DNA of 64,000 nt from a bacterium (GCA_030666865.1 DAOUWZ010000002.1:24691-88690); one strand, 5' to 3'. Counted from the stretch's first letter, positions 2,422 through 54,772 are shown. The notes: generated by a model from the sequence alone, not told the origin. Numbers and translations: made by a program.

Positions 2422-2455
2422 GGGAAGCCTTCCGCCTGCCTGCCGGCAGGCAGGC
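2422..2455. repeat. GC-rich palindromic repeat, family A copy 1: ggaagccttcc followed by gcctgcctgccggcaggcaggc.
   Basis: A perfect 22-nt palindrome in AT-rich intergenic DNA. It is nearly identical to the copy at 20850-20911. Confidence 0.8.
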
Positions 2456-2488
2456 TACATATTTTCTACTGTTCAACTAGTGTAGCGG

Positions 2489-2504
2489 TCCCGCGAACGC
2501 GGGA
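2489..2504. repeat. tcccgcg-aa-cgcggga hairpin, a member of a recurring tcccgcgNNcgcggga hairpin family.
   Basis: Related copies lie at 12328-12360, 22825-22848 and 59811-59828. Confidence 0.6.
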
Positions 2505-2631
2505 TAGGTTTTAATGATGATTTACTGTTTAATTGTTAGTAATATATTTCTAATCTGTTATACGGAAAAATCTATTTAATTATAAATATTCAACATATAT
2601 ATAATACAACGCCAAACACGAATAATCAAAA

Positions 2632-4386
2632 TTATAAATTCGTAGGTGAAATTTGATAATAATCCAATATAAACTTAGCAATATCACCAAATAACGGCGC
2701 AGCTGAGGAAGCTGAAAATCTTACTCCTGGATTATCAAGCTTGGCAATCATTACGAAAGCTGGATTTTCAATTGGCCCAAAACCAACAAATGAATGAATT
2801 GTTTCATCGGAATACCCGCCTTGCGGTGAAGGTACTTGCGCTGTACCGGTTTTACCAGCAATATAATACCCATCCACCCCAGCTCTTCCGGCGTGACCGT
2901 TTTCAATTACTGATACCAACATCCCAGATAGCAGGGTTGACACCTGAGGAGAAATTACTTGCCTAACAAATTGCGGCTCAAATTCTTCTACTCGTCCATC
3001 ACTATGCCAAATTTCTTCAACTAAATATGGTTTCATTAATTTTCCTCCATTAGCTATAGCGCCAAAAGCAGCCGCAATTTGCATAGGAGTAACGGTAATG
3101 CCTTGCCCAAATGATCCAGTAAAAGTATAAATAGGTCTTTTGCCCAAATTTGAAATATTACCATCAGCTTCACCAGGCAGGGTAATACCAGTTTGTCTGC
3201 CAAATCCAAACCCTTCTACATACTTTTTAAACAAATCATCGCCCACCAATGAAGCAACATGTATAGCGCCTGTATTTAGTGAATTATCCAAAATATCTGT
3301 CATAGTAGCCAGACCATGTCCATTGGGAAATTTTTCAATATCTGAATTACAAATCGGCTTATGCCAGCCCTCAACTATATCACAGCCATTATCATAATAA
3401 GTTGTCTTAGGAGTAACTTTTTCCAAATCAAGACCAGCTGCCATAGTAATAGGCTTGAATATAGAGCCTGGTTCATATTCATGAGCAATGCTTGGATTAT
3501 TAAAAATATTAATCTGCTCCTGTTCATAATATAAATTTGGATTAAAATCTGGATAAGCGCACATAGCGAGTATTGCTCCAGTATTTGGATTTAAAACAAC
3601 AACTTCCCCGCCCTTAGCTCCGAGCCTCATAGAATATTCTTTCAACTTGGTACAAACAGCATATTCAATTACAGGATCAACTGTTAAGATTAAATCTGAG
3701 CCATCAACTGCCTTTTCAACACTACGTGAAGCTACCGTAATCAACCTGCCCGCTGCATCTCGTTCAGAATTTATTACGCCATATGACCCAGATAATTCCG
3801 AATTGAAATAACCCTCTAAACCATACTGACCTTTGGCCTGATCTGATTTAAAACTGTAAAAACCTGTTAAATGAGATCCAATATTATAATTCGGGTAATA
3901 CCTAGAAGCTTCAGGTCTAAAATTTAAACCTTTAATATTAAAAGCTCCTATTTCATTTTTTTGTTCTAGAGTTAAACTTCTCTTAATAGGTTCATACGGA
4001 TCATCTGTCAAAGAAAATTTATTCAAGAAATATTGCGCTGTATCATCATCCCAAGCAAAATATTCCTGCAAAGGTTCAATAATATCAAGCGGATGTTTGT
4101 CGAAATCTTTTGGCACAGAGTATAAAAAATATAAATCCCTATTTTGTACCAGCGGATGCAGAGATTTATCTTTATCTTGCATAAATATTTCTCCACGCTG
4201 AGGTATTAATACTTTCTCGATTTCATGTTGACTAGAAGCCATAAGCTGATAATAATCCTTCTTTAAAACTTGCAAAACAAACAATTTCATTATAATTAAC
4301 AAAAATAATATTGCTACACAAAAAATAAAAAAAGTCAGCCTTGAAATAGCAAACTTCTTATTGTTTCTACCAGCCGCTCTGGACAT
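2632..4386 (-). CDS. ftsI: Penicillin-binding protein 2/3 family peptidoglycan D,D-transpeptidase (FtsI-like).
   Basis: It has an N-terminal TM segment, the SxxK motif (GSIFKP) and the KTG motif (AGKTGTAQ), and sits after ftsL in the dcw cluster. Confidence 0.8.
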   Translation of the reverse strand: MSRAAGRNNKKFAISRLTFFIFCVAILFLLIIMKLFVLQVLKKDYYQLMASSQHEIEKVLIPQRGEIFMQDKDKSLHPLVQNRDLYFLYSVPKDFDKHPLDIIEPLQEYFAWDDDTAQYFLNKFSLTDDPYEPIKRSLTLEQKNEIGAFNIKGLNFRPEASRYYPNYNIGSHLTGFYSFKSDQAKGQYGLEGYFNSELSGSYGVINSERDAAGRLITVASRSVEKAVDGSDLILTVDPVIEYAVCTKLKEYSMRLGAKGGEVVVLNPNTGAILAMCAYPDFNPNLYYEQEQINIFNNPSIAHEYEPGSIFKPITMAAGLDLEKVTPKTTYYDNGCDIVEGWHKPICNSDIEKFPNGHGLATMTDILDNSLNTGAIHVASLVGDDLFKKYVEGFGFGRQTGITLPGEADGNISNLGKRPIYTFTGSFGQGITVTPMQIAAAFGAIANGGKLMKPYLVEEIWHSDGRVEEFEPQFVRQVISPQVSTLLSGMLVSVIENGHAGRAGVDGYYIAGKTGTAQVPSPQGGYSDETIHSFVGFGPIENPAFVMIAKLDNPGVRFSASSAAPLFGDIAKFILDYYQISPTNL

Positions 4387-4397
4387 ATGTTAAATTC

Positions 4398-4715
4398 TTA
4401 TTGTTTAAAAGCAACAGCGTCCTGACCAGTTTGTAAATAATCAATTTTATCGTTTAATACCATCCCAAGCTCTGATACCACTGTTTCAATTCTTGAAAGT
4501 GATCTCAATTTAGCCGTTTCAAAACCTAATTGTTCATTATTTTTTTCCAATTTTTGTACTTGTCTTTCCAAATCTTTCAAATAATACCCTTGAGTAGATA
4601 CCATGCTTATTTGAGACACATAAATAAATACAACTACTCCTAATGATATTAAGAGGGCTATTCTTACGTATTTACTTTTTACAATTTTATTTTTATTTTG
4701 GGCACGACAATGCAT
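4398..4715 (-). CDS. ftsL: Cell division protein FtsL-like (septum formation initiator family).
   Basis: A 105-aa protein with one TM segment followed by a coiled coil, positioned between rsmH and ftsI. Confidence 0.55.
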   Translation of the reverse strand: MHCRAQNKNKIVKSKYVRIALLISLGVVVFIYVSQISMVSTQGYYLKDLERQVQKLEKNNEQLGFETAKLRSLSRIETVVSELGMVLNDKIDYLQTGQDAVAFKQ

Positions 4716-4739
4716 GGATTTATAAATATGTTTTAATTA

Positions 4740-5681
4740 TTATAACTTTTCAACAACTCTCAACTTAGCAGTTCGGCTCCTAGGATTTTCCTCCAATTCT
4801 TTTTTAGTCGCCGTAATCGGCTTTTTATTTATTATTTTAATACTAGCCCGATGTTCGCATACGCATTTTGGAATCTGAGGCGGACAAATACAATCTTTTG
4901 CCTCTTTTCTAAAATAATTTTTTATTACTCTATCTTCAATTGAATGAAAACTAATTATTCCTAACCTAGCTCCTGGTTCTAAAACTTCAATTCCTTGCGG
5001 TAAAAATTCTTCAATATTTCCTAATTCATCATTGACTTCTATTCTCAATGCTTGCCAAGTTCTAGTAGCTGGATGGATTCTTGAGGGCGTACGCCACCTG
5101 TGGGCATACACCCCCTCAATAATCTGTTTCAACCCCAATGCCGAAACTTTTTGTTTTTTTCTTTTTGCTATTATTTCACGAGCGATGGTTTTGGAAAGTG
5201 GTTCCTCCCCGTATTCGCTCAAAATAGTTGTTAATCTTTCTTCGCTGTAATTATTTACTACTTCTTCACCAGTTAATTCTGCATCTGGTGAATATCTCAA
5301 ATCCAAAGATTCTTTACTGTGAAAACTAAATCCTCTCGCATGTTCATCAACCTGAAATGAGGAATAACCCAAGTCGCATATAATACCGTTAATCTTATCA
5401 AATTTGAACTCATATATTTTTGTTTTTAATTTTTTGTAATTATCGTTGATAAAAATAATTCTGCCAGCAAAATCTTTTAAATTCTCTTTAGCCGCTACTA
5501 TTGCTTGTGGATCCAGGTCAAAAGCCAATAATTTACCTTTTGGTGCTGTTTTTTTAAGTATTTCTTGGCTATGTCCTCCACCACCCAATGTACAATCGAC
5601 AAAATTTTGATTTACTTGTGGATTAAGATACTCTATAACTTCATTTAGTAATACTGGGATATGCTGAGAAATAGATTTCAT
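4740..5681 (-). CDS. rsmH: 16S rRNA (cytosine1402-N4)-methyltransferase RsmH (MraW).
   Basis: It shows HIPVLLNEV...DCTLGGGGHS and the characteristic position after mraZ. Confidence 0.85.
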   Translation of the reverse strand: MKSISQHIPVLLNEVIEYLNPQVNQNFVDCTLGGGGHSQEILKKTAPKGKLLAFDLDPQAIVAAKENLKDFAGRIIFINDNYKKLKTKIYEFKFDKINGIICDLGYSSFQVDEHARGFSFHSKESLDLRYSPDAELTGEEVVNNYSEERLTTILSEYGEEPLSKTIAREIIAKRKKQKVSALGLKQIIEGVYAHRWRTPSRIHPATRTWQALRIEVNDELGNIEEFLPQGIEVLEPGARLGIISFHSIEDRVIKNYFRKEAKDCICPPQIPKCVCEHRASIKIINKKPITATKKELEENPRSRTAKLRVVEKL

Positions 5682-5716
5682 ATAATCATCAAATATTTAA
5701 TTCTAAACAATACTTC

Positions 5717-6148
5717 TTACACTCCAAGATCTCCCAATGCTTCAGCTATATCACTGCTATTTGCTTCAGCGTTTTGTTTGTATTTTTCCCATTCTTCTTC
5801 TGACCACACTTCAACTCTGTTATAAAGTCCAGTTAAAACAGTTTTCTTTCTAATATCAGCGTATTTCCTTAAATAATCAGGTAATATTATTCTTCCCTGC
5901 TTATCCAAGGAAACATCCATAGCACCAGCTAGCATCAATCTAGCAAAAGCTCTGGATTTACTTTGTGAAATAGGCAAAGCAGCTAATTTTTCTGCCAACT
6001 TTTTCCATTCAGGTTTAGTATAAACAAACAATGATTTATCCAATCCTTTGGTTACTACTACTCCTTGCTTAAAATCAACACGAAACTTAACAGGTACTGC
6101 TAACCTGCCCTTTTCATCAATACTGTGTTTAAATTCACCAATAAACAT
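5717..6148 (-). CDS. mraZ: Transcriptional regulator MraZ.
   Basis: A duplicated MraZ domain, FxGxxxHxxDxKGR (GEFKHSIDEKGRLAVP) and ...DKQGRIILP, in 143 aa. Confidence 0.85.
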   Translation of the reverse strand: MFIGEFKHSIDEKGRLAVPVKFRVDFKQGVVVTKGLDKSLFVYTKPEWKKLAEKLAALPISQSKSRAFARLMLAGAMDVSLDKQGRIILPDYLRKYADIRKKTVLTGLYNRVEVWSEEEWEKYKQNAEANSSDIAEALGDLGV

Positions 6149-6206
6149 TTTTTTGTTTGATTTTAGCCTAGTTTTACTTGGTTTTATTAAATGTTGAACA
6201 AATTAG

Positions 6207-6314
6207 TTATCCACAAAATATCGAGGTTATCCCCACATTTATCCACTTTTCACCCTTCAAATACATTATACCCCACATAACTAAAAAAATCAACCACTTT
6301 TACCTATGGATAAC
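6207..6314. promoter_or_regulatory. Cluster of four DnaA-box-like 9-mers upstream of mraZ.
   Basis: TTATCCACA (6207-6215), TTATCCCCA (6227-6235), TTATCCACT (6239-6247) and TTATCCATA in reverse complement (6306-6314). A fifth degenerate box, ttatAccccacat, lies near 6266. Confidence 0.5.
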
Positions 6315-6379
6315 TCCTAAATATACAAAAAAAGGCGTAATTTACGCCTTTTCTTTAAAATATTGATAATCCAATTAAT

Positions 6380-6964
6380 TCATAAATACTTTTCCAAAAG
6401 CAATTTACCTGCTTCTCTGATATCTTCAATACGATAAAAAATAAACTTACCTCTTGTAGTTATTCCCCATTCCAAAATTATATTCTTTTTATTCATTTTC
6501 CTGGCTAATAATATTTTTCTTCTTTCTCTAGATGTTAAAAACTTTTTTTCACCTATCACTTGAAATAATTTCTTATTTTTATAATAATAGCTTGCGTCAA
6601 TCTTTCCATGTCTCATTAAATTAACTATCTCGCCTTCTACTGCTTCTATTATTTCACTATTCTTCTCAATTAGAATTGTTCCGCCTTTCTTCCATTTCCA
6701 TGATGGGTAGACAACAAAAACTGTTTTTCCCTTTTGCTGATTCTGAAATTTATCAATTTGGGCTGGAACCTTGTCTTTAATCAGCCAATTTATATATAAA
6801 TTATTCCATTCAGCACCTTTAATATCAACCGTTCTAATTGTCCAACCAACATAATCTTTAATTTTATAAAATTTATCTAAATCCTTTGATGATTTTACAA
6901 ATTCCCATTCTGGATGAGGCAATCCTGCCTTATCAATTAATTTTAATCCTTGGCAAATTGTCAT
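6380..6964 (-). CDS. Hypothetical protein.
   Basis: A 194-aa ORF with coding-like composition. I recognised no family. Confidence 0.4.
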   Translation of the reverse strand: MTICQGLKLIDKAGLPHPEWEFVKSSKDLDKFYKIKDYVGWTIRTVDIKGAEWNNLYINWLIKDKVPAQIDKFQNQQKGKTVFVVYPSWKWKKGGTILIEKNSEIIEAVEGEIVNLMRHGKIDASYYYKNKKLFQVIGEKKFLTSRERRKILLARKMNKKNIILEWGITTRGKFIFYRIEDIREAGKLLLEKYL

Positions 6965-6989
6965 ATATTAACTTATTTATCTTTTTACT

Positions 6990-7125
6990 CTCCCTCATCC
7001 GCCCTCCTAACGGGCACCTGCCCGCCATCGCTACGCTCTCGCCCGCTAACCGCCTAAAGCGATAGTAATAGCGAGCGGGTAGACGTTAGCAGGCAGCCAT
7101 TCTCCCTAAAGGAAAAATAGCTAAT
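6990..7125. other. GC-rich (~60% GC) structured intergenic element of about 135 nt, a possible small RNA or regulatory structure.
   Basis: cctaacgggcacctgcccgccatcgctacgctctcgcccgctaaccgcctaaagcgatagtaatagcgagcgggtagacgttagcaggcagcc contains several imperfect inverted repeats (ctcgcccgcta/tagcgagcggg, cctaacg/cgttag, gcctgc/gcaggc). It sits between two same-strand genes. Confidence 0.25.
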
Positions 7126-7136
7126 AATGTGTTATT

Positions 7137-7538
7137 CTATTTCCCAATATTCGGCTCAGCGCCGTATTCTGGTAATACTATCTGAAATTCATCCATTTTA
7201 TCTAGCTCAACAATCCCCTGTTTCAATAAATCTTGATAATTAACAAAATCATTTTGTTTAAAACCGACTATTTTTTTATTCAAAACCCAAGCCAAAGTAT
7301 TTCCAACAGCCAAACCAATTCTCAGCGCGGAAAAACTGCCAGGTCCTTTTACTGCTATTATTCCTGATAAATCTGTTAACTCTAAATTATTATCTTTAAT
7401 AAATTTATCCAAACTTACCAATAATTTTTCTTCTTGTTCAAATTTTGCTGGAATTTTTCGTTCATGCTTAACCCGAGACTCACTCCCAAGCCCTAAATAA
7501 ATATATTCTATATTTGCAGTGTCTATTATCAAAATCAT
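7137..7538 (-). CDS. tsaB: tRNA threonylcarbamoyladenosine biosynthesis protein TsaB (YeaZ), short N-domain-only form.
   Basis: MILIIDTANIE...IAVKGPGSFSALRIGLAVGNTLA matches the TsaB/Kae1 N-terminal fold, but at 133 aa it is much shorter than typical TsaB. Confidence 0.6.
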   Translation of the reverse strand: MILIIDTANIEYIYLGLGSESRVKHERKIPAKFEQEEKLLVSLDKFIKDNNLELTDLSGIIAVKGPGSFSALRIGLAVGNTLAWVLNKKIVGFKQNDFVNYQDLLKQGIVELDKMDEFQIVLPEYGAEPNIGK

Positions 7539-7637
7539 TACAAAGTATTAAGTATAAAGTATTGAATAAGAAACAAGACGCAAGATACACGCTCTTGACA
7601 TTTCAAGCTAATAGACTTCCTTTTAAAAATCTAAAAA

Positions 7638-8321
7638 CTATTCCACCATCTTCTCAATATCACACTGGCTTATTTTCCGATATTTTCCTTCTGCCAAATC
7701 TAACAATTTTATTCCAGCGATACGAATTCTTTGCAAACTTTTTACTCTCACATCTAAACTTCCCAACATTTCCCTTATTTGTCTATTATAACCTTGATGT
7801 AATACTACTTTATAAACCTTATTATCAATTTTGCTGATTTTATCAAATTTACCTACCCCTTCTTCAAGTTTAATACCTGATAATAATATACCCTGCGTTT
7901 TATCATCTATTAATTTATCTAGAGTTACCAAATATTCTTTCTCCTTTTCAAATTTGGGATGAGTTAATTTAAAAGCGAGTTCTCCATCATTAGTCAAAAT
8001 CATTAAACCTTTGGAATCTTTATCAAGCCTGCCAACTGGAAAAACGGGCGGATTATCAGGCACTATTTCAATAACCAATTTTTCAGCATGCTTGTCTTCT
8101 ACTGAAGATACATAGCCAATTGGCTTATTAATAACATAATACACCTTATTGATAGGTGTTATTGTTTCTTCGTTTAATTGAATTTTATCATGCAAACCTA
8201 TTTGCCTAGCTAAATCATTGACTACTTCTCCATTTATTTTTATCTGCCCTCTTCTGACAAATGCTTCAGCTTGCCTTCTTGAATATTTTGTACAACTGGC
8301 AATATAACGATTTATTCTCAT
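7638..8321 (-). CDS. Pseudouridine synthase, RsuA/RluB family.
   Basis: An N-terminal S4 domain (MRINRYIASCTKYSRRQAEAFVRRGQIKINGEVV) and the catalytic motif PVGRLDKDSKGLMILTNDGE. Confidence 0.8.
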   Translation of the reverse strand: MRINRYIASCTKYSRRQAEAFVRRGQIKINGEVVNDLARQIGLHDKIQLNEETITPINKVYYVINKPIGYVSSVEDKHAEKLVIEIVPDNPPVFPVGRLDKDSKGLMILTNDGELAFKLTHPKFEKEKEYLVTLDKLIDDKTQGILLSGIKLEEGVGKFDKISKIDNKVYKVVLHQGYNRQIREMLGSLDVRVKSLQRIRIAGIKLLDLAEGKYRKISQCDIEKMVE

Positions 8322-8893
8322 TATTTTTTCACGCTAAATATCTTATCAACCACAACTATCTTTGGACTATTTAAAATATTATAAATAAATTTATCCGTCA
8401 TCTGGCTTCTGGAATTGAATTCCGCTGTTGATAAAATAGTATAATTAATTTCCTGATCAAAATTCTTCTCCAATAATTTTACTATTTGCTTGAATTTATC
8501 TGACTCTATTCTGTCTCCAACAATTAAAATATCCGTCAAAGTATCTAACTGTTTGACAAACCGTCCAGTAAAAATACAATATTTAATTCCTTTGATTTTC
8601 TTGATACGATCAATTATTTTATTTTCAATTAAGCTCTGCGATTTTATAATTAAAGCTTCAATTTCAGTAAACAATAAAAAATCTTTATTAACTTGATAAA
8701 ACTTTTTTTTATCTTGATTGAAAGTAATCAAAAAATCTATATTAATCAGATTATCTAGCTCCCGCCTGACCGAATTTATCCTTTCATCAATTTCACGAGT
8801 AAGCTCCCTGACATAATATTTACTATCAGGATTTAATAAAAATTTTTTGAGCAACTTTACTCTGGTTCTTGAACTAAATAGTTGTTCAAGCAT
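8321..8893 (-). CDS. Hypothetical protein with an N-terminal winged-helix-like DNA-binding region.
   Basis: SRTRVKLLKKFLLNPDSKYYVRELTREIDERINSVRRELDNL resembles an ArsR/MarR-type wHTH. The C-terminal half is unassigned. The ATGA stop/start overlaps the downstream pseudouridine synthase. Confidence 0.4.
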   Translation of the reverse strand: MLEQLFSSRTRVKLLKKFLLNPDSKYYVRELTREIDERINSVRRELDNLINIDFLITFNQDKKKFYQVNKDFLLFTEIEALIIKSQSLIENKIIDRIKKIKGIKYCIFTGRFVKQLDTLTDILIVGDRIESDKFKQIVKLLEKNFDQEINYTILSTAEFNSRSQMTDKFIYNILNSPKIVVVDKIFSVKK

Positions 8894-8956
8894 AAATGTT
8901 TATATTAACGGATAATTATCTAAATAGCTTTTAATACGTATATAGTTTAATTAATA

Positions 8957-11713: not shown

Positions 11714-11724
11714 ATTTATATTAA

Positions 11725-12249: not shown

Positions 12250-12480
12250 AAATTATTTCTTGAATTTATTTTCCGCTATTCATTACTTATTGTTTTATGA
12301 ATCTCGGCTATCCACGCTTTGTTCCGCATCCGCGGAACTACGCGGGATTGTAACTGCTAATAAAATTTTCTGCGTTTACAACTTGAAAATTTCAAGCCAG
12401 TTACAAAAAAAAATCTGTTTACAACAGACTTCCAGTTTCTCGACCTTAACCTAAATAAAAATTTAGGATGGAAACCTCGA
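12250..12480 (-). promoter_or_regulatory. Putative rplJ leader (possible L10 autoregulatory leader) containing gttccgcatccgcggaac-type hairpins.
   Basis: A long 5' region with GC hairpins directly upstream of rplJ, where no rplK-rplA precede it. The assignment rests on position only. Confidence 0.25.
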
Positions 12481-12801
12481 TAGGCGCTCACGTGCATTAA
12501 ACCTTTTAATTCTGATGTCTTTATTTAGAAATTAGTAATTAGACATTAGAAATTCACTCAGGTGCCTATTGTCTGTGGTTCTTGTTATTTACAATAATAT
12601 ATATATTATACTATGTCAACCATTAAAATACACAGGTCAAACCTATATATAAAAATACTTGACAAAACTGACTAATTGTACTAATTTAATATAATTTACA
12701 TTAACAAAAATAACTAGACTCACTGTATAATAAATTACGTAACGACGAAATTTTCAGATTTTGAGATAAATTTTTAAAACAATTTTTGAAGTTTAGCTTA
12801 A

Positions 12802-12823
12802 GCCTTGCCTACCGGCAGGCAGG
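12802..12823. repeat. GC-rich palindromic repeat, family A copy 2 (gccttgcctaccggcaggcagg).
   Basis: It shares aagcctt...cctgcctRccggcaggcagg with the copies at 2422, 20850 and 29270. Confidence 0.7.
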
Positions 12824-13996: not shown

Positions 13997-14019
13997 TAGC
14001 TCTTTCTGGAAATATATAA

Positions 14020-14041
14020 GGGGTTGCGCTTGCGCAACCCC
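14020..14041 (+). terminator. Rho-independent terminator (ggggttgcgc-tt-gcgcaacccc followed by T-rich sequence).
   Basis: A perfect 10-bp GC stem 24 nt after the stop of 12998..13996. Confidence 0.7.
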
Positions 14042-14269
14042 TTTTAAATTTATTTACACACAGGTCGACCCAGGGAACTCATGGCCGAGAGAAGAGTAGT
14101 GTGTATTATCCCCTCTATCAAGAGGGGTGCCCGAAGGGCGGGGTGTGTTATTTTCTTTAAAATAAATAAATTTTCTACCTACCACTACCTATTACACACC
14201 CCTTTAATTCCCCTCTCAAGAGGGGATTTTTGCTATTAATGTATTCTACAGTTAAAACATAATTGAGGC

Positions 14270-14350
14270 ATTCCCCTCTCCTCCTCGAGTCTGAGTCTCG
14301 GAGTCGATGACCAGAGAGGTGGCCATGAGCTTGGCGAAGCGACGGGGTGT
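14270..14350. repeat. Repeat family B copy 1, which contains ctcctcgagtctgag, the reverse complement of ctcagactcgaggag found at 54754-54768.
   Basis: An exact 15-mer is shared with the region just upstream of dnaE. The ggtcatcg/cgatgacc and aggtggcc motifs are also shared. Confidence 0.7.
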
Positions 14351-14421
14351 ATTATCCCTCTTGATGTATATTAACCTAATCACTATTTATAAATATAAAC
14401 CAATAATAATATTATCCTGCT

Positions 14422-14447
14422 TTGTTACGTAGCGTGCTACGTAACAA
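14422..14447. repeat. Perfect palindrome ttgttacgtagc-gt-gctacgtaacaa. The GTTACGTAGC motif also recurs at 47194-47229.
   Basis: Read directly from the sequence. Confidence 0.7.
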
Positions 14448-14490
14448 GGTAAGTAGCAAAATTTTTGTAAACTAAATTTCTATGTTCAAA

Positions 14491-14522
14491 TCGTAGGGTA
14501 CACATATATGTGTACCCTACGA
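14491..14522. terminator. Hairpin tcgtagggtaca-catatatg-tgtaccctacga, the terminator for the PEGA lipoprotein gene.
   Basis: A 12-bp perfect stem. A near-identical stem (gtagggtaca/tgtaccctac) occurs at 18348-18377. Confidence 0.65.
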
Positions 14523-14596
14523 TATTATTAAATGAAAAACCTGGAACAACGTTCTGTTCCAGGCTTTCCCTCCTTTATTTTAAAATAAACTAAAAG

Positions 14597-18173: not shown

Positions 18174-18347
18174 GACGACTCCTTTCTTGGTTAATTTAAC
18201 TATTAGTTAATTATTTTCTTCAATTTTTAAAGCAACAAATAAGGGATTGTTTCCCTTGAGATTTCATAAAAGAATAACATAAATGGTCTAGTTTGTCAAT
18301 AACAAAATGATCGCTAAAATTAGCGATATTTATAACAGAAAAACAAC

Positions 18348-18377
18348 TGTAGGGTACAGGCATGCCTGTACCCTACA
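18348..18377. terminator. Hairpin tgtagggtaca-ggcatgcc-tgtaccctaca, the terminator for mltG.
   Basis: An 11-bp stem that shares its arms with the hairpin at 14491-14522. Confidence 0.65.
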
Positions 18378-18407
18378 AAAATAAAATCGTAATACCTATT
18401 TAAATAC

Positions 18408-19535: not shown

Positions 19536-19598
19536 CGAGGCTAAATGCCTCGCCTACGCGATATATAATTATTCGCGTAGCTGAGGCATTTAGCCTCG
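19536..19598. repeat. Compound inverted repeat of 25-bp arms (cgaggctaaatgcctcgcctacgcg / cgcgtagctgaggcatttagcctcg) around a 13-nt AT loop.
   Basis: There are 2 mismatches between the arms, and each arm holds its own gaggc-taaat-gcctc hairpin. It lies in the intergenic region between the manC-like gene and mltG. Confidence 0.75.
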
Positions 19599-20796: not shown

Positions 20797-20849
20797 AAAC
20801 CTATAACTCTCATATATTCAAAATTATTAATTAATAATTAAACTACTAT

Positions 20850-20911
20850 GGAAGGCTAAAGCCTTCCGCCTGCCTGCCGGCAGGCAGACAGGCGGAAACC
20901 TTTAGGTTTCC
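20850..20911. repeat. Family A copy 3, three consecutive GC hairpins: ggaaggc-taaa-gccttcc, then ccgcctgcctgccggcaggcagacaggcgg, then ggaaacc-ttta-ggtttcc.
   Basis: Its core gccttccgcctgcctgccggcaggcag matches the copy at 2422-2455 almost exactly. Confidence 0.8.
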
Positions 20912-20994
20912 ATTTCTTATTGGAATATGTTTTAACTTTTAAATAATTTTATTATTATTCTTTTCAAAATTTCTCTACGGGGTTATTTTTCATA

Positions 20995-29171: not shown

Positions 29172-29269
29172 TCTTTTTGTTTAATATCCCTTCGTCCCGC
29201 TCAGCGAGACTTCGCTTTTCTATTTCTGTCTATTAATTAGTGTATTTATCAATTAGCTATGGGGTATTA

Positions 29270-29293
29270 CCTGCCTGCCTGCAGGCAGGCAGG
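29270..29293. repeat. Family A copy 4, the perfect 24-nt palindrome cctgcctgcctgcaggcaggcagg.
   Basis: Read directly from the sequence. Confidence 0.8.
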
Positions 29294-29424
29294 TACAAAT
29301 TTATTAAGTAATTGAATTTAAAATTTTTTCTACCTGCTCTTTATCAACTTTTTTTATTATAATTATATATTACCATAACTCAATTTTTTTTAATACTCTC
29401 AATTTTATAGAAAAATACATATTT

Positions 29425-47135: not shown

Positions 47136-47193
47136 AACATGTAACATACAGCATATAACACGAAACAATTTAGATTAAATAATAAATAAACCT

Positions 47194-47229
47194 TGTTACG
47201 TAGCATGTTACGTAGCATGTTACGTAACA
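47194..47229. repeat. Tandem repeat (TGTTACGTAGCA)x2 followed by TGTTACGTAACAG, ending 1 nt before the prmC start codon.
   Basis: Read directly from the sequence. The motif is shared with the palindrome at 14422-14447. Confidence 0.75.
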
Positions 47230-47230
47230 G

Positions 47231-48058: not shown

Positions 48059-48152
48059 AAAGGATAAATTACCCGGCAAATATATTTAAATCGTAGTGAC
48101 AGAGCACTGCTCTGTCACTACATTCTAACAACTATCACCCATAAACTATAAC

Positions 48153-49220
48153 CTAGAAAACTTCTCTATCTCCAGGCACTACTACAATCCAAGTTAAGCC
48201 TTGATTAAGTTCAATTTGCTTGCTTCCTTCACCAAAAAACTTAGTTTTCTGTCCTGGCGATTCTTTCTTCCAAAAAATATCTTTCTTCATACCATCTTGC
48301 CAAAGAATTGCCTCTCCATTTCCAAAAATATCTAACTTAATTCTCAATTTTTCATCAAGTATTTTTTCTGCGGGCACAAATTGAACTATTATATTATTAA
48401 CGATAACTAATTGTCCATTATCTAAAACATTCTTATTACCCTGTTTCCTGATATAAGCATTTCTTTTCCTATTATAGATAAATTTAGAATCATATATTTC
48501 TCCAGCGGTAAAATCAATATAAACTTCATCATTATAATCATTTCTTTCTTCAAAAATCAAATCGGCTTTATAAAGCCAATCTTCTTTATATTCTGTCAAT
48601 CCCCAAGACTCTAAAGCTTTATTCAATTTTTTTGAACTGGTAAATAAATTATGTGGCGCATTTCTATTAAAATCTCGATAAAAATAGTATTGCCCAGCGC
48701 CTGAAATTTCATTCAAATCATTTATTTCCAATTTTTTTATATCATCCAATGCTTCGGGACTACCGCCGGCATGAACATACAGGGCATCATACTCATTAGC
48801 CCATTCAACAAAATAAGGGCGAGCTGAACGCACTGGACCAATCTTTTCTATATTCTTATTTACATCAAAAATACCTAAAAATCTTGTTGCTCCACCCTCA
48901 ACCAATGTTTCATAAACAAAACGAGCCTCTGATATCCCTACCTGCGGTCTAGCTAAAAAATAATTATCAAGCATAACTGCTATCGGATATGATGGTTGAA
49001 CTACTTCTTTTTGATCCAATATTTCCTTATTTCTATTTTCAATTACACTAATTGGATTTACTTTTTGAACTCTATGAGAAATATTTTTTACATTGTAATA
49101 ATTTTCATTCTCAGCCAAAAGAACAAATATTCCAAAAATTAATATGGTAAATAATAAAAGTACTATTATAGCAACAATTTCATTTTTTTTAATAAAATAT
49201 TTTTTCTCATTAATCGGCAT
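48153..49220 (-). CDS. Membrane-anchored extracytoplasmic protein, possibly DUF3048 (YerB-like).
   Basis: An N-terminal TM segment. ARPQVGISEARFVYETLVEGGATRFLGIF resembles the DUF3048 N-terminal motif, recalled from memory and not verified. Confidence 0.35.
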   Translation of the reverse strand: MPINEKKYFIKKNEIVAIIVLLLFTILIFGIFVLLAENENYYNVKNISHRVQKVNPISVIENRNKEILDQKEVVQPSYPIAVMLDNYFLARPQVGISEARFVYETLVEGGATRFLGIFDVNKNIEKIGPVRSARPYFVEWANEYDALYVHAGGSPEALDDIKKLEINDLNEISGAGQYYFYRDFNRNAPHNLFTSSKKLNKALESWGLTEYKEDWLYKADLIFEERNDYNDEVYIDFTAGEIYDSKFIYNRKRNAYIRKQGNKNVLDNGQLVIVNNIIVQFVPAEKILDEKLRIKLDIFGNGEAILWQDGMKKDIFWKKESPGQKTKFFGEGSKQIELNQGLTWIVVVPGDREVF

Positions 49221-49289
49221 GATTTTTTATTGAAATATTTAGATTTGTTTATATGAAATAATTTTGCAACCATCTCTATAATTAATTTA

Positions 49290-49793
49290 TTACTGTGCTC
49301 CCATTATTGTATAACCATTTGGAAGTTCCGTAACAAAATCAAAATCCGGACAATTGCCCTTACCATGATCTTCTTGCAAGGTTTCAAAATTTACTATTTG
49401 TAAAATATAATACTCATTTAAACATTTGTGTGATCCGTATGAAAATTTTTTATACCGATAAAAATAATTTTCATCATTATAAGGATCTCTAGGAATATCA
49501 ATAAGAATTTCTTCTTCAATCAACTGGGGAATAAATTCATACAAGCCACCTTTTGGTTCATAAGTCGCATCCCAACCATTCCAATCATCATCTATTGTAT
49601 CTGGATATTCATTATAACGATCATAATAAATATCCAAAGCTTTTGCTATCTCTTTTAAATCTGCTTTTCTTTTAACATCTCTAACTTTTGCTCGAATATT
49701 ATCAAATCCTACAAAAAAAATCACTGCTATACATCCCGTAATTATGATAGCGAAGCTCTTTCGTAATTTATTTTTTGAATTCATAGATGACAT
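49290..49793 (-). CDS. Hypothetical membrane-anchored protein of 167 aa.
   Basis: An N-terminal TM segment (FAIIITGCIAVIFFVGF). No family was recognised. Confidence 0.4.
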   Translation of the reverse strand: MSSMNSKNKLRKSFAIIITGCIAVIFFVGFDNIRAKVRDVKRKADLKEIAKALDIYYDRYNEYPDTIDDDWNGWDATYEPKGGLYEFIPQLIEEEILIDIPRDPYNDENYFYRYKKFSYGSHKCLNEYYILQIVNFETLQEDHGKGNCPDFDFVTELPNGYTIMGAQ

Positions 49794-49926
49794 AACTCTT
49801 CTATAATTATAACATATCTAGTTACTGTGTAAAAATGATTGTAAAAAGAAAAACAGCCACGCAAACGCGGGGCTGTCTAATAAATATTTGAGATGGTTGC
49901 AAAACTATTTTATGACTATCTTATTA

Positions 49927-50622
49927 TTATTTCTTATTTTCTGACTTTTCTTTCTTATCTCCTTCCTTCTTATCCTCCTCTTTCTTATCGCCTTCATCAG
50001 CATTTTCATCCTCTTCTTTCTTATCGCCTTCATCAGCATTTTCATCCTCTTCTTTGACTGGTTCTTTTTCGACCCTTGGCGGCTGAACCAAACAAACTGG
50101 GATTGAATCATTTAAATTTAATGTTATACCCTCAGGAATTTTCAAATCTCCTATAGTAATAACTTGATCAAATTCTTCTAAAGCAGAAATATCAACATCT
50201 ATCTTCGGAACTAAATCTTTTGGCAAACAGCTAACTTGAATGTCACTTATAGATTTTACAAATACACCGCCCAATTCTTTAACCGCCTTAGATATGCCAA
50301 TAAATTCCAAAGGAATTTCTGTACTAAGTTTTTCATTCATATTTACGATATAAAAATCAATATGAATAACTTCATCAGTAACAGGATCTTGCTGAATATT
50401 CTTAACCAAAACATTAATAGGCTTATTTTCGTCAATGGTCAATTCAATCAAATTACTTTCTCCGACTTTATTATAAAGCTTTTCAAAATCATTTTTAACA
50501 ACCGTAACATGCTGATTTTTCTTTTTATGGCCATAAATCTCACCTGGTATCAATTCATCCTGCCTTAATTTACCAGCAGATGCTGATTCTAAATCTCTGG
50601 TTTTAACCTTAAATTCAAACAT
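49927..50622 (-). CDS. rplY: 50S ribosomal protein L25 / general stress protein Ctc, with a C-terminal acidic/basic tandem-repeat tail.
   Basis: Ribosomal L25 family N-terminus (MFEFKVKTRDLESASAGKLRQDELIPGEIYG), and a tail KEEDENADEGDKK x2 encoded by a 39-bp tandem repeat at 49975-50051. Confidence 0.75.
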   Translation of the reverse strand: MFEFKVKTRDLESASAGKLRQDELIPGEIYGHKKKNQHVTVVKNDFEKLYNKVGESNLIELTIDENKPINVLVKNIQQDPVTDEVIHIDFYIVNMNEKLSTEIPLEFIGISKAVKELGGVFVKSISDIQVSCLPKDLVPKIDVDISALEEFDQVITIGDLKIPEGITLNLNDSIPVCLVQPPRVEKEPVKEEDENADEGDKKEEDENADEGDKKEEDKKEGDKKEKSENKK

Positions 50623-50732
50623 AATTTTATTAATTATTTATGTAATATTTATATTAACTAAAAAATATCAATCAGTCAAGAGCTAGTCTTCAAACCTATT
50701 ATTTATGCAGAACATTAAAAATAGGAGTTAAC

Positions 50733-51518
50733 ATGTCAAATAAAGGCAGTTTTATAGATATTCGAGTAGCCCAAAAAGATTTTTATTATTTCAAAAAAAA
50801 TGAATGTTATCTTGATAACTTAAAACAAATCTTATATAGAGAATATTTAGGATTGGTAAAATATGTCGTCAGAAAAATGATCAAAAATTTTCCCAATTGT
50901 CTGGAAGAAGAAGATCTTTATCAAATCGGAATAACTGGCTTACATGAAACCATTGAAAGATTTAACCCAAATTATGGCATTAAATTTGAAACATATGCCA
51001 TCCCACGGATTAAAGGTTCTATTATTGATGAACTGCGTAAACTAAATTGGATTCCCAGATCTATTAGAGCAAAATTAAATACAATGAACAATCAAACAAT
51101 AAAAATGGAACAAATATTTCCACATGGTTATACTGACGAACAAACAGCCAATAGACTAGGTGTTGATATCAAAAATCTCCATAACTGGAAAAAATATGCA
51201 CCTTCAGTGACATTGCTTTCTCTGAACAGACCTTTAGATCAAACAAATAAAGAAAATCTATACGATGTTATTCCAGATGAAAATTACATATGTCCTCATC
51301 AAATGATTGAGGATGCAGAAATAAAAACAGCCTTGATTAAAACTTTAAAAAAACTTCCCGCAAAAACAAGAATAGCTATTAGTCTATATTACTATGAAAA
51401 ACTAACTTTCAAAAAAATCGGGAAAATTCTAAATGTATCTGAATCCCGTATTTCTCAAATTCACTCGGAAACGATGCTAAAACTAAAAAAAGAAATTAAT
51501 AAAATGTTTTACGCATGA
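50733..51518 (+). CDS. Sigma-70 family sigma factor, group 3 (FliA/WhiG/SigD-like).
   Basis: Region 2 (YAIPRIKGSIIDELRK) and region 4 HTH (LTFKKIGKILNVSESRISQIHSETMLKL), in 261 aa. Confidence 0.7.
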   Translation: MSNKGSFIDIRVAQKDFYYFKKNECYLDNLKQILYREYLGLVKYVVRKMIKNFPNCLEEEDLYQIGITGLHETIERFNPNYGIKFETYAIPRIKGSIIDELRKLNWIPRSIRAKLNTMNNQTIKMEQIFPHGYTDEQTANRLGVDIKNLHNWKKYAPSVTLLSLNRPLDQTNKENLYDVIPDENYICPHQMIEDAEIKTALIKTLKKLPAKTRIAISLYYYEKLTFKKIGKILNVSESRISQIHSETMLKLKKEINKMFYA

Positions 51519-51730
51519 ACCCCTGCTACTTGTAGGAGTTTTATTTTTGAATCTTTATTTTTAAAGTATCAGGTATTAAGTTGTTCATGAGGAATAATCA
51601 ACTAGGCTAATTAAATCAATTCGAAACTTCAGAATTATATAGTCCAATTTTTTATTTAAAATTCAAACATTTAATATTGATTTAAAATTTATAATTTAAA
51701 TTTTTTAATTCTAGCTTCTATATACTAAAT

Positions 51731-52834
51731 TTATTTATCATGCAAATAAACGCTTTGTGCCAATCCCAAAGCAATAAAAACAGCCAACAGAGCTGAACCG
51801 CCAGCAGACACAAATGGCAGCGGTATGCCAGCAATTGGAAACAAACCAATATTCATACCAATATTAACAGCCATTTGCGCAAATAAATAAATAACAACTC
51901 CTAAAACAATAAACATACCAAAATCAGTTCGAGCAATCTTGATAGTTTTAACCAGACGATAAAAAATCAAAGCAAAAAGGAACAAAAGCACCATGCTCCC
52001 CAGCCACCCCAGCTCTTCTGCAATTACAGCAAAAATAAAATCAGTTTGCGCTTCTGGTAAAAATCGCAACTGTGATTGAGTCCCAAGACCAAGCCCCCTG
52101 CCATTAAATCCACCTGATCCGACCGCTACTTTTGCCTGAGTAATATTATACCCTTCTCCCAATGGATCGGCAGCTGGATGCAAAAAAGTCACAATTCTTG
52201 ATTTTTGATAATCCTGAAGAACCCATTGCCAACTAATGCCTAGGCTAAATATTAAAAATAATATTACAATCAAATAATGCACCTTTCTGAATGGTATGAA
52301 AAAAATAAATATAAACCATATCAAAAACAAAATAAAAGCCGAACCCCAATCTGGCTGCAACATTGTCAAACCGACTAAAATAAAAGTCAAAACACCTGAA
52401 AAAATTAATTGCCCAAAAGAATAAATCGGGCGATTGCTTTGCGAAAAAAATTTAGCCAAAAAAATTATATATAAAACTTTGACAAACTCAATCGGTTGAA
52501 TACTTATCGGTCCAATAATAAACCAAGCCTTAATATTTCTTATTTCTTGGCCAAAAATCAATACTGCAACCAAAAGCCCCAAAGCTATAAAATACGCCAA
52601 CCAGCCATAATGTTTCAAACCCCTATAATTATTTACACCAAACCAAAATAAAAAAATCACCCCGATAAAACCGGCGGTGAACTGCTTATAAAAAAATACA
52701 AAAGAATCCTCAATCACATTCAAATTCAAGCTGAATAGCATTATCAAGCCAAAAATAACCAATATAATACTTGCTATCAAAATCTGCCAATCAAAACTTG
52801 ATAATAAGGATAACACTCTTTTCATACATAACAA
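51731..52834 (-). CDS. rodA: SEDS family peptidoglycan glycosyltransferase (RodA/FtsW).
   Basis: 10 TM helices and a C-terminal PFVSAGGSALLAVFIALGLAQSV. Confidence 0.8.
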   Translation of the reverse strand: MLCMKRVLSLLSSFDWQILIASIILVIFGLIMLFSLNLNVIEDSFVFFYKQFTAGFIGVIFLFWFGVNNYRGLKHYGWLAYFIALGLLVAVLIFGQEIRNIKAWFIIGPISIQPIEFVKVLYIIFLAKFFSQSNRPIYSFGQLIFSGVLTFILVGLTMLQPDWGSAFILFLIWFIFIFFIPFRKVHYLIVILFLIFSLGISWQWVLQDYQKSRIVTFLHPAADPLGEGYNITQAKVAVGSGGFNGRGLGLGTQSQLRFLPEAQTDFIFAVIAEELGWLGSMVLLFLFALIFYRLVKTIKIARTDFGMFIVLGVVIYLFAQMAVNIGMNIGLFPIAGIPLPFVSAGGSALLAVFIALGLAQSVYLHDK

Positions 52835-52836
52835 AA

Positions 52837-53724
52837 TTATCTAATAAAACTTGGATCTATATCCTGATATGTACGAATATTGCTTTTTTCCAAATGATTG
52901 ACGTCAATTATAACCTCTGGTCTTAGCCCAAGCGCCAATAATCTGTCCCAATATACAAATATCTCTCTTTGTTCATTTGGCATCACGTCATCAAGCCCTA
53001 TTATATTGAAACCGGCTATCTTGTTGCCTTGCCACAAAATTACCTGCGCGTTCATTTCCCAAAAATTATATGATGACAAATTATACAAATCAAATATCAC
53101 ATAACTTTTCTTAACTTCATCATTTTTAGTTCCACCTTGATTATAAATAATATTTTCAACGCTAACATCTGGACTAATAAACTGTTTTCTAGCATCAAAA
53201 TGACTACTACCTTTAACTTTATTCCATACCTCCCTGCCTAAAACCAATCTAGCAGAAGAATTTTTATCGCCAAAATCAAAATTGAAATAATACAAATATT
53301 TTTTTTGCCCAGGTAATAAATAAGTAGTCTGTGATGGCGTTAACATTCCGCCAACTTCAAATTGATAATTAATTTCCCGCAGGTACCATTTATTATTCAT
53401 ATTTTCAACCTCAGCTACTATATCAATAGTATTTGAACTATTTGGTAAAACTTTAGCTGAAACCACACGTATTTTCCTTGGCCCAGTAACTGCTTTGATC
53501 GCCTGATAATCAATACTATCCGTGGAAAGCTCATAAATCATCTGCTGGTGCGCTGCCGTGCCTTGTAAATATTTATAAAATTTTATACCAACATTTGCAT
53601 ATGTAGCGACTAATAATAAAATTACAAAAGAAATCATCCCGGCTTTTACCTTGAGACGATGCTCTACCCACCAATAACCAAACTGCAATTCTTTATCAGT
53701 TAAATTACCGCGCTCATCTGACAT
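52837..53724 (-). CDS. Hypothetical membrane-anchored protein, co-transcribed with rodA across a 2-nt gap.
   Basis: One TM segment near the N-terminus (MISFVILLLVATYANVGI) followed by a ~250-aa extracytoplasmic domain. Confidence 0.4.
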   Translation of the reverse strand: MSDERGNLTDKELQFGYWWVEHRLKVKAGMISFVILLLVATYANVGIKFYKYLQGTAAHQQMIYELSTDSIDYQAIKAVTGPRKIRVVSAKVLPNSSNTIDIVAEVENMNNKWYLREINYQFEVGGMLTPSQTTYLLPGQKKYLYYFNFDFGDKNSSARLVLGREVWNKVKGSSHFDARKQFISPDVSVENIIYNQGGTKNDEVKKSYVIFDLYNLSSYNFWEMNAQVILWQGNKIAGFNIIGLDDVMPNEQREIFVYWDRLLALGLRPEVIIDVNHLEKSNIRTYQDIDPSFIR

Positions 53725-53901
53725 TTATCTTTATTAATGATTATTCATATAACAAATTTATTATACAATATTTTCAATTTTATTAAAATAACAAGACTAT
53801 ATATCGAATTGCTTTTAAATTAATCTATTTATATGATATCATTATATTAGAATTAATAATATTTTATTTAATTCTTATTTCTTAATTCTTAATTTATTTT
53901 T

Positions 53902-54204
53902 ATGGACATTCAAACTACTAATGATCTTTTCTGGTTACTACTGGGGATATCAATACTGCTTTTTACCTTATTTGTCTGCTGGGGGATGTTTTATTTTATA
54001 ATGACTTTGAAAGACATTAGATTAATCACCAAAAATTTGAAAGAGAAAATGAAATTACTGGAAGATTTCATCAAAGTAGCCAAAGAGAAACTCAATGATA
54101 CTTCTCTGTATTTGAAAACCATAGTAGATACTGTGGTTAAAGTAACCGGCTGGGTTGCCAGTAAAAAAATACCTGCAGACAAATCAGATGATGAAAAAAA
54201 ATAA
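53902..54204 (+). CDS. Small membrane protein, hypothetical.
   Basis: A 100-aa ORF with an N-terminal TM segment and a coiled-coil-like remainder. Confidence 0.4.
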   Translation: MDIQTTNDLFWLLLGISILLFTLFVCWGMFYFIMTLKDIRLITKNLKEKMKLLEDFIKVAKEKLNDTSLYLKTIVDTVVKVTGWVASKKIPADKSDDEKK

Positions 54205-54286
54205 TATTTTACGATAAAAACTAAGGCTAAATGAATATACTGTGATATGTTAATAAGTATGTTCAATAAAATTTATTAAGCCCCTA

Positions 54287-54311
54287 AATTCCCCTTATCG
54301 GGGGAATTTTT
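54287..54311 (+). terminator. Rho-independent terminator aaattcccc-ttatc-ggggaatttttt.
   Basis: A perfect stem plus a T-run about 80 nt after the 53902..54204 stop. Confidence 0.7.
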
Positions 54312-54717
54312 TATTTTATACCCTTATAAAAATATAATCTAGTCAGCCATTCATGTAGTAAAGTTTAAAAATTTAATTTATGAGCGTATAAAAGTTTTGA
54401 CTCTTCTGCAAAGCAGAATTCAAAGCTTTAGCGAATAAATTAAATTTTTACTGAGCGAAATGATAGGCTGCAGTTTTTGGTTACTTTTTTGCTGCCAAAA
54501 AAGTAAAAATAAAAAAACCATAAAACATAATAATAAAATCGTTTATAAAACTCGATTATTATATCTCCATTCTTTATTCTCAACGCCCGTTTGCCCCGTC
54601 AAACAATATGTTCTATAATATATACACCCCGTGCCGTTCACCAAAAATTATACAGAGTTTAAAAAGTATTAAAATACTCTGTTTTTTATACGTTTAAAAA
54701 ACAAAAAAACTATAACC

Positions 54718-54772
54718 CCTGCCTACCGGTCATCGCTCTAAGGTGGCCTCGGGCTCAGACTCGAGGAGCAAG
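54718..54772. repeat. Repeat family B copy 2 (cctgcctaccgg-tcatcgctctaaggtggcctcgggctcagactcgaggag), directly upstream of dnaE.
   Basis: It shares an exact 15-mer with 14281-14295 in reverse complement. The 5' half carries a family A half-site. Confidence 0.7.

Follow-up and report, generated by a model that had tools for sequence, protein, structure and literature searches.

A 64,000-nucleotide (nt) stretch of a Patescibacteria genome (DAOUWZ010000002.1, positions 24691 to 88690; here called the window) has a GC content of 32.4% and carries several short, GC-rich palindromes in the spacers between its genes, which raises the question of what these sequences are and how they came to lie there. 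The window is placed in Patescibacteria on the basis of its gene content and its nearest protein homologues. An earlier interpretation made without database searches (the sequence-only reading) had grouped the palindromes into one family and had offered protein-binding sites, REP/MITE-like elements, and restriction-modification targets as explanations. Our analysis shows that the palindromes belong to the family of a perfect 20-bp palindrome, CCTGCCTGCCGGCAGGCAGG (halves CCTGCCTGCC|GGCAGGCAGG; here named X), which recurs in many other bacteria and in viral contigs, is insertional in nature, and occurs in physical linkage with the gene of a small GIY-YIG nuclease at tRNA genes. We consider it probable that the window palindromes are solo X copies and that X is selfish DNA with this nuclease as its partner.

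The X family in the window comprises four copies and one half-copy, every one in a spacer, and no match to the 20-mer with up to three mismatches occurred in 100 shuffles of the window. Copy 1 is a solo, perfect 22-nt palindrome, GCCTGCCTGCCGGCAGGCAGGC, at positions 2434 to 2455, with an exact X at 2435 to 2454 (DNA fold, -12.7 kcal/mol; z = -3). It is bordered by an ftsI-like PBP-transpeptidase gene and a Mur ligase gene, both on the minus strand. The last 10 nt of its left flank, GGGAAGCCTTCC (2422 to 2433), form together with the next G the sequence GAAGCCTTCCG (2424 to 2434), which is also present at copy 3. In total, copies 1 and 3 have 29 identical nt in common, in agreement with the approximately 30 nt noted before, and this common flank suggests that the unit copied within the genome was slightly larger than X. 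Copy 2, CTTGCCTACCGGCAGGCAGG (12804 to 12823), is a decayed X with two mismatches, both transitions in the left arm, and occupies a divergent spacer, upstream of a region with weak similarity to the leader of ribosomal protein L10. This match (12399 to 12593, minus strand; 30.6 bits; E = 0.016) is itself upstream of the L10 gene, and copy 2 sits about 210 nt further upstream.

Copy 3 (20848 to 20913), between a PCMT gene and a ManC-like gene on the minus strand, is a compound element in which two hairpins of 18 nt each, GGAAGGCTAAAGCCTTCC and GGAAACCTTTAGGTTTCC, flank an X core at 20868 to 20893. The core has one mismatch and a 4-nt slip, the right arm being longer by one CAGA unit, and the full unit folds with -26.4 kcal/mol (z = -8). 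Copy 4, (CCTG)3(CAGG)3 at 29270 to 29293 (-14.3 kcal/mol; z = -5), is an X variant one unit longer and lies between a methyltransferase gene and pgk, again both on the minus strand. It had been recognized as a perfect 24-mer, and its symmetry extends to a perfect 28-mer, TA(CCTG)3(CAGG)3TA, at 29268 to 29295. The half-copy, CCTGCCTACCGG (54718 to 54729), upstream of dnaE, consists of the left arm and the centre and differs from the 12-mer CCTGCCTGCCGG by one mismatch; since only 0.02 matches are expected by chance, it is probably a truncated X. The sequence-only reading was therefore accurate in its description: the positions of all copies hold as exact or near matches that are missing from the shuffles, the copies form one sequence family, all are intergenic, and copies 1, 3, and 4 lie between genes of the same strand, including the ftsI-like/Mur ligase pair. 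Rfam gave no match at the palindrome copies. The segment from 17981 to 39171, with copies 3 and 4 inside, is 100% identical in three independent SRA assemblies, which shows that these two copies are no assembly artefacts.

Comparison with related genomes revealed that X was gained in the window lineage only. Four syntenic relatives obtained from the protein database have the same gene order (PGK 55 to 66% identical; GC content, 32 to 35%) and contain no X-like sequence with up to four mismatches and almost no GC-rich palindromes. The spacers are 198 to 298 bp long in the window versus 2 to 52 bp in these relatives; the PCMT/ManC-like spacer, which holds copy 3, measures 2 to 3 bp in the relatives, and the methyltransferase/pgk spacer, which holds copy 4, measures 253 bp in the window versus 36 to 52 bp. 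The sequence-only reading had proposed to look for presence or absence of the copies in related genomes, and every window copy proved to be missing from the syntenic relatives; an empty site was furthermore found for a gatB gene that carries X in another genome (see below). Relatives sought in JGI metagenomes via PGK were at best 49% identical and too distant for an empty-site comparison.

A scan of reference genomes with one genome per species and the query CCTGCCTGCNNGCAGGCAGG detected X in at least 120 loci, each from a different genome, so that the family extends well beyond the source genome, a point missed by the sequence-only reading. CG occupied the central NN position in every match listed except two. 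According to their record titles, the matches listed included about 37 Patescibacteria, about 38 Bacteroidota, and about ten other groups, among them Omnitrophota, Planctomycetota, Verrucomicrobia, Nitrospirota, Bdellovibrionales, Elusimicrobia, and Ignavibacteria; seven matches were from cultured isolates. These titles are partly unreliable: some third-party annotation (TPA) metagenome-assembled genomes (MAGs) are labelled "uncultured Gammaproteobacteria," and one so labelled, the MAG of locus L109, is Shapirobacteria-like by its GatB homologues. X was also found in 35 stretches of IMG/VR viral contigs, where two control palindromes of the same composition had no match. No X with up to three mismatches was found in 0.84 Mb of metagenome loci around PGK chosen without reference to X, which together with the syntenic relatives make up about 0.9 Mb of independently chosen, X-free sequence, and no exact X is present in the cultured phages of INPHARED or the plasmids of PLSDB. 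This indicates that X is sequence-specific and frequent in certain environmental lineages, without being universal. An identical 20-bp sequence in Patescibacteria, Flavobacteriia, and phage contigs implies either unusually strong conservation or horizontal spread. A tRNA gene was present within 150 nt for 8 of the approximately 120 copies. As a separate observation, X often lies in or next to short, imperfect tandem repeats of 7 to 9 nt (for example, AATTACG and TCTAAAA, and at loci such as L006, L009, L055, L074, L106, L129).

The insertional nature of X is evident from genes with a known structure. A phage tRNA-Met gene (L148) carries X in its variable loop (AGG[X]TC), and ARAGORN recognized a tRNA of 92 nt with X and a canonical tRNA of 72 nt (AGGTC variable loop) after removal of exactly 20 nt. 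In other tRNA genes, the D-loop carries X at its 3' end (GGTA[X]GAGC). In low-GC genomes, X is furthermore found in frame in GatB, FtsK, RfbB (dTDP-glucose dehydratase), and three membrane proteins, where it is read as LPAGRQ, a cysteine-free frame, in six of six cases (p ≈ 0.004 under equal frames), and the regions with the hexapeptide have no counterpart in solved homologues. For gatB, a 90%-identical relative has the empty site GATGA CGGTCAAAC TGTC (DDGQTV) in place of GATGA [X] TGGTT (DDLPAGRQVV). Here about 8 to 9 nt were replaced by X, with a net gain of 12 nt, which excludes a uniform 21-nt unit (X plus one) for the in-frame copies. On the reverse strand of L109, at about position 5157, a short duplicate made from the final ~45 nt of gatB carries a second X. 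The new upstream copy at this locus supplies the C terminus of GatB, a pattern of duplicating the target and interrupting one copy that is also seen at tRNA genes. One X can also be nested within another, which is then split at C|CGG. The only signal in the flanks is A..T at -1/+1 (24%), and no regular target duplication was found; a fixed target-site duplication was rejected, as the 7-, 8-, and 14-nt repeats at seven copies are equally explained by short tandem arrays. In a strict stem test, X was located between the arms of other perfect hairpins in 10.7% versus 4.6% (about 2.5-fold; p = 0.0035).

A candidate for a partner gene is present in the window itself. An open reading frame (ORF) of about 80 amino acids (aa) at 464 to 703 on the minus strand encodes a predicted GIY-YIG nuclease of the Slx1/UPF0213 type (PF01541, E = 1e-17; family hidden Markov model, E = 1e-26, full length) and lies directly downstream of an adjoining tRNA-Glu(CTC) gene (812 to 886, minus strand). 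Its product may act in trans on the X copies of the window. A jackhmmer search seeded with this ORF was run on loci selected for X and on unbiased loci. It recovered 10 family ORFs in 1.18 Mb of X-selected loci, 6 to 7 of them with X within 150 nt, and none in 0.92 Mb of unbiased loci. X is thus physically coupled to a small GIY-YIG gene at tRNA genes, a coupling that the sequence-only reading did not notice and that our earlier clustering of ORFs (at least 90 aa, BLAST, 155 X loci) had missed because the ORFs are short and divergent.

The full element has a recurrent design, in which the 5' part of a tRNA gene, interrupted by X, is followed by the GIY-YIG ORF and then by an intact copy of the same tRNA gene. 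Complete or curated sequences with this element include that of WWE3 RIFOXYC1_FULL_40_10 (MEWB01000001). The duplicated 5' part comprises 27 to 46 nt and reaches to about position 60 in one case. Within this pseudo-tRNA, X sits at the D-loop or at the start of the anticodon loop, 8 to 15 nt from the boundary of the ORF insertion, and the distance from the end of X to the start codon of the nuclease gene was 15 to 38 nt in all 14 elements measured. In a reverse test, homologues of one X-adjacent ORF were picked from the protein database without regard to X. An exact or one-mismatch X was present in the upstream pseudo-tRNA for five of six proteins (seven of eight loci), with carriers that include two isolates, Namhaeicola litoreus and Croceiramulus getboli (CP123444), the latter with two tandem units of the element, as well as a Dokdonia MAG and a Shapirobacteria MAG. 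In the sixth homologue the arrangement is mirrored, and a 3' tRNA fragment contains a degenerate X-like palindrome; of two further viral relatives one has a degenerate X and the other a different palindrome in the same role. The X-nuclease-tRNA architecture was reached both from X and from the nuclease.

The X-adjacent proteins are 24 to 46% identical to one another, and X is still exact beside blindly chosen homologues that are 49 to 58% identical to the query, which indicates that X is constrained. Three palindrome types were found in this GIY-YIG clade, namely, X, the TCCGCCTCAGGCGGA type, and the L044 type. Traces of the arrangement are also visible in gene annotation, as a translated X forms part of an extension in 21 of 270 gene calls of the family (versus 0 of 240 control proteins), mostly at the N terminus and often after a translated tRNA D-arm. 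We found no prior bacterial description of X, of LPAGRQ, or of a GIY-YIG gene combined with a tRNA and a palindrome in the full-text literature, a coverage that excludes subscription journals.

The nuclease family comprises 6,442 clusters at 50% identity (E ≤ 1e-10) and belongs to the Slx1/UPF0213 lineage of the GIY-YIG superfamily, as a minimal domain with the GIY and YIG motifs and without an auxiliary domain. Y5, Y15, G17, R25, H29, and E61 are invariant across 24 family sequences, and the best sequence matches in PDB are the UPF0213 proteins EF2693 and BH0048, followed by SLX1, a structure-specific nuclease (PMC1564403). A survey from 2006 regarded the minimal Slx1/UPF0213 branch as vertically inherited repair proteins (PMC1564403). 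Several features of the genes examined here are signs of selfishness: copies lie in hsdS and in a 23S rRNA insertion, tandem, decayed, and phage-borne copies exist, and several tRNA species serve as hosts. Together with the duplicated tRNA 5' fragment, they are also indirect signs of a homing endonuclease gene, in which the enzyme would cut the allele that lacks the ORF and repair would copy the ORF in. The 23S rRNA case is a family ORF at 4758 to 5042 of L098, inside a 23S rRNA gene insertion of a Saccharibacteria MAG.

How do these findings bear on the functions proposed for the window copies? The assumption of the sequence-only reading that they are not simple terminators was confirmed. A lenient terminator scan flagged the copies on the plus strand only, while the flanking genes are on the minus strand, and an intrinsic terminator on the sense strand was rejected, as that strand has no T-run and the tails correspond to AT-rich background. 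The central four bases of X are self-complementary, which indicates symmetry at the level of DNA and no selected RNA loop. The copies are also not parts of unrelated longer elements, the outcome named as fatal to the family: in a comparison of the spacers, similarity ended at the palindrome, or 9 to 10 nt beyond it for copies 1 and 3, and a piece of a longer repeat was rejected. A binding site for a regulator or nucleoid protein fits poorly with syntenic relatives that have no copies and with a 20-mer that recurs in unrelated phyla, phage contigs, tRNA genes, and protein genes, and nothing points to a restriction-modification target.

Of the options offered, a nature like that of repetitive extragenic palindromic (REP) sequences or of MITEs (miniature inverted-repeat transposable elements) came closest, but the defining features of both are missing. 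REP sequences are imperfect palindromes of 20 to 40 nt with a required 5' GTAG or GTGG, whereas X is a perfect palindrome without such a head, its flanks showing only A at -1 (41%) and T at +1 (n = 160 nonredundant copies). Clustering of ORFs from the 155 X loci revealed neither a REP-associated tyrosine transposase (RAYT) nor any other recurrent transposase near X. With respect to MITEs, there are no terminal repeats around an internal region, the element being the 20-nt palindrome alone, and 94 of the 160 copies have no flanking direct repeat, with no fixed target-site duplication. The window copies are probably functionless passengers in operon spacers, which at most add stable hairpins to transcripts.

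From the association of X with the GIY-YIG gene, we infer that the nuclease mobilizes X. The enzyme would cut the symmetric site or an extruded hairpin or cruciform and so make breaks, possibly as a symmetric dimer on the palindrome or on a cruciform in the way SLX1 acts on branched DNA. Repair of the breaks would then copy an existing X into them, with a little of the target sequence lost or duplicated, and copies would survive only where they are tolerated, in AT-rich spacers, in loops of tRNAs and other hairpins, and in surface loops of proteins. Such survival would explain the positions in tRNA loops and the single, cysteine-free frame. The variable loss or duplication of target sequence, the 10 co-copied bases of copies 1 and 3, and the symmetric expansion of copy 4 fit templated repair better than a cut-and-paste movement of a fixed oligonucleotide.

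Several observations weigh against a selfish X partnered with the nuclease. About 94% of X copies are solo, and most are far from any nuclease gene. The GIY-YIG ORF of the window has no adjacent X, no partial tRNA-Glu duplicate was found nearby, and it is only 21 to 35% identical to the other aligned family ORFs. The contrast in ORF density between X-selected and unbiased loci is inflated, because the latter are poor in tRNA genes. The insertion sites share no homology with the donor, and we know of no GIY-YIG enzyme that catalyzes strand transfer; that the nuclease binds, cuts, or moves X is deduced from sequence. The enrichment of X in hairpin loops is modest (10.7% versus 4.6%), and in a minimum-free-energy test, hairpin-loop X did not differ from controls. 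Finally, the footprints are heterogeneous, with exactly 20 nt in tRNAs, about 8 to 9 nt replaced in gatB, and local duplications elsewhere.

Two alternatives assign X to other kinds of mobile DNA. X could be a REP-type element moved by a RAYT (Y1/HUH, IS200/IS605-like) acting on single-stranded hairpins, with the nearness of the GIY-YIG gene being secondary because both favor tRNA genes. X is indeed short, GC rich, palindromic, mostly extragenic, and free of target duplication, it has a modest preference for the loops of other hairpins, and other palindromes in the same genomes bear a REP-like GTAG head. However, X itself has no GTAG or GTGG head and only the A..T preference in its flanks, the clustering of the 155 X loci gave no recurrent transposase family, and a given REP sequence is as a rule confined to one species or genus instead of being identical across phyla. 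Coincidental co-targeting also does not explain a gap of 15 to 38 nt in 14 of 14 elements or X at five of six blindly chosen GIY-YIG loci, and we regard this explanation as quite improbable. Alternatively, X could mark the immunity or landing site of a homing endonuclease, disrupting the cleavage site in the allele that bears the element, and spread only by co-conversion among tRNA genes, solo copies elsewhere being due to chance or relics. GIY-YIG homing enzymes such as I-TevI have separated cleavage and insertion sites, which the 8 to 15 nt between X and the ORF-insertion boundary in the pseudo-tRNA recall, and other tRNA genes have a solo X at the same place in the D-loop. Yet most solo copies lie outside tRNA genes, in spacers and protein genes without tRNA homology, chance cannot yield an exact 20-mer hundreds of times (controls, 0), and the intact downstream tRNA copy retains an undisrupted site, so a homing marker is unlikely.

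The remaining alternatives deny mobility altogether. Palindromes kept by the host as RNA or DNA signals, such as terminators, mRNA-stabilizing hairpins, or operator sites at which a dimeric regulator or a nucleoid protein binds, would be in line with stable hairpins between same-strand genes inside operons, and the fixed position of X in the 5' leader of the nuclease gene makes a role in the expression of that gene plausible. Against such a signal in general stand the missing T-run on the sense strand and a scan that flags the antisense strand only, the self-complementary central bases with their DNA-level symmetry, orthologous spacers of 2 to 52 bp in relatives without copies, the decay of copy 2 and the half-site, and the presence of the same sequence within tRNAs and coding regions of unrelated phyla, which makes host maintenance very unlikely. 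A perfect palindrome in many metagenome assemblies might also suggest an artefact of sequencing, library preparation, or assembly, such as a linker or a chimeric junction. This is hardly credible, given 100% identical contigs from three independent SRA runs, X in cultured isolates and long-read assemblies, continuous flanks (tRNA anatomy, reading frames, and synteny), mutated and expanded variants, and the absence of X from INPHARED phages and PLSDB plasmids.

A selfish X with its GIY-YIG partner resembles several known systems in part. Like X, the palindromes of the REP/RAYT system of Proteobacteria are short, GC rich, mainly extragenic, mostly solo, and without target-site duplication, and few copies lie beside a small nuclease gene that is the presumed mobilizing enzyme. 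Their partner is a Y1/HUH transposase, whereas that of X would be a minimal GIY-YIG (Slx1/UPF0213) nuclease; X is moreover a loop-less perfect palindrome without a GTAG head, is identical across many phyla and phage contigs, also lies inside tRNAs and in frame in proteins, and has a full element built on a duplicated tRNA 5' fragment. Rickettsia palindromic elements are likewise selfish palindromes of AT-rich, reduced genomes that lie in frame in protein genes and in RNA genes. They are roughly 100 to 150 bp long, are restricted to Rickettsia, and to our knowledge have no partner enzyme, whereas X measures 20 to 24 bp, spans phyla, and has a nuclease gene linked to it.

Yeast mitochondrial GC clusters, the PstI palindromes of Neurospora, which flank tRNA genes, and the double-hairpin elements of Allomyces have been cited as mobile (PMC7218506). 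As with X, these palindromes are GC rich, invade AT-rich genomes, may be present or absent among relatives, are associated with tRNA genes, and can be nested or multi-hairpin; in contrast to X, which is bacterial and phage-borne with a defined gene partner, they are organellar and lineage-specific in sequence and have no identified enzyme. The nuclease gene of the X element finds a parallel in free-standing GIY-YIG homing genes such as seg and mob of phage T4, which are also small selfish genes that adjoin or occupy conserved RNA genes (the tRNA gene cluster of T4 contains segB), with a sporadic distribution, phage copies, and decayed copies. Known GIY-YIG homing enzymes contain a DNA-binding domain as a separate unit and do not leave a dispersed 20-bp repeat behind, whereas the partner of X is a bare catalytic domain of about 80 aa from the Slx1 lineage, with a conserved palindrome and a duplicated tRNA 5' part.

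We tentatively suggest, as a possibility held with less confidence than the partnership itself, that X and the minimal GIY-YIG gene represent an unrecognized class of prokaryotic mobile elements, in which a bare structure-specific nuclease propagates a 20-bp hairpin and the full element persists by duplicating the 5' part of a tRNA gene. If so, X may be the smallest mobile DNA unit described, active in at least eight phyla and their phages, and writing LPAGRQ into proteins and extra arms into tRNAs. It would account for GC-rich hairpins in AT-rich genomes of Patescibacteria and Bacteroidota, for odd insertions in tRNAs and proteins, and for over-extended gene calls that include a tRNA fragment and LPAGRQ. 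Should the link to the nuclease hold, part of the Slx1-like/UPF0213 family would consist of selfish nucleases with a cognate hairpin and not of the presumed repair proteins. The partnership proposed here involves an 80-aa protein and a 20-mer, and several of the hosts are cultured.

Other palindromes were noted in the window and near X. Just downstream of the GIY-YIG ORF and its terminator, at 342 to 406, perfect 25-nt inverted arms (TGTCATTCCTGCGAAGGCAGGAATC ...), each itself a hairpin, lie 15 nt apart (-30.4 kcal/mol; z = -11), and their GGAATGACA/TGTCATTCC motif recurs beside X in several other phyla (L005, L069, L096). The ManC-like/YceG spacer, which is 298 bp long in the window versus at most 3 bp or a gene overlap in the syntenic relatives, holds a 63-nt triple-hairpin palindrome (19536 to 19598; -28.1 kcal/mol; z = -9) with a layout that matches that of the compound copy 3. 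Palindromes at 14490 to 14523 and 18347 to 18378 have common arms, GTAGGGTACA/TGTACCCTAC, and different centres; with a REP-like GTAG head, they constitute a repeat family of their own in the genome. At 2349 to 2376, GTAATGACAGGTCGCGATCTGTCATTAC overlaps the annotated start of the Mur ligase gene; a palindrome next to a 44-nt tandem array in a Bacteroidetes MAG (L117) differs from it by one mismatch, and the same core, as GTAGGGACAGGTCGCGACCTGTCCCTAC or a close variant, is present in seven viral contigs. A second cross-phylum palindrome, TCCGCCAGCTGGCGGA, was found within 8 kb of X in nine loci (L015, L020, L021, L037, L045, L113, L115, and others), sometimes inside other hairpins, and its 18-mer form has six matches in viral contigs. 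A GIY-YIG gene was not observed next to this palindrome.

Furthermore, a T-box leader match at 59632 to 59835 (54 bits; E = 2e-10; under the Rfam gathering score) precedes an ORF at 60173 to 61978. It explains the GC-rich hairpin at 59801 to 59835, which was rejected as a member of the X family. Between two minus-strand ORFs, a GC-rich stretch of about 110 nt (6999 to 7110; spacer GC content, 48%) without a match in Rfam could be an unrecognized structured RNA. Finally, a 15-nt exact inverted match, CTCAGACTCGAGGAG, between 14285 to 14299 and 54754 to 54768 links the 600-bp spacer at 13997 to 14596 to the spacer of the half-site, both of which are rich in GC blocks.

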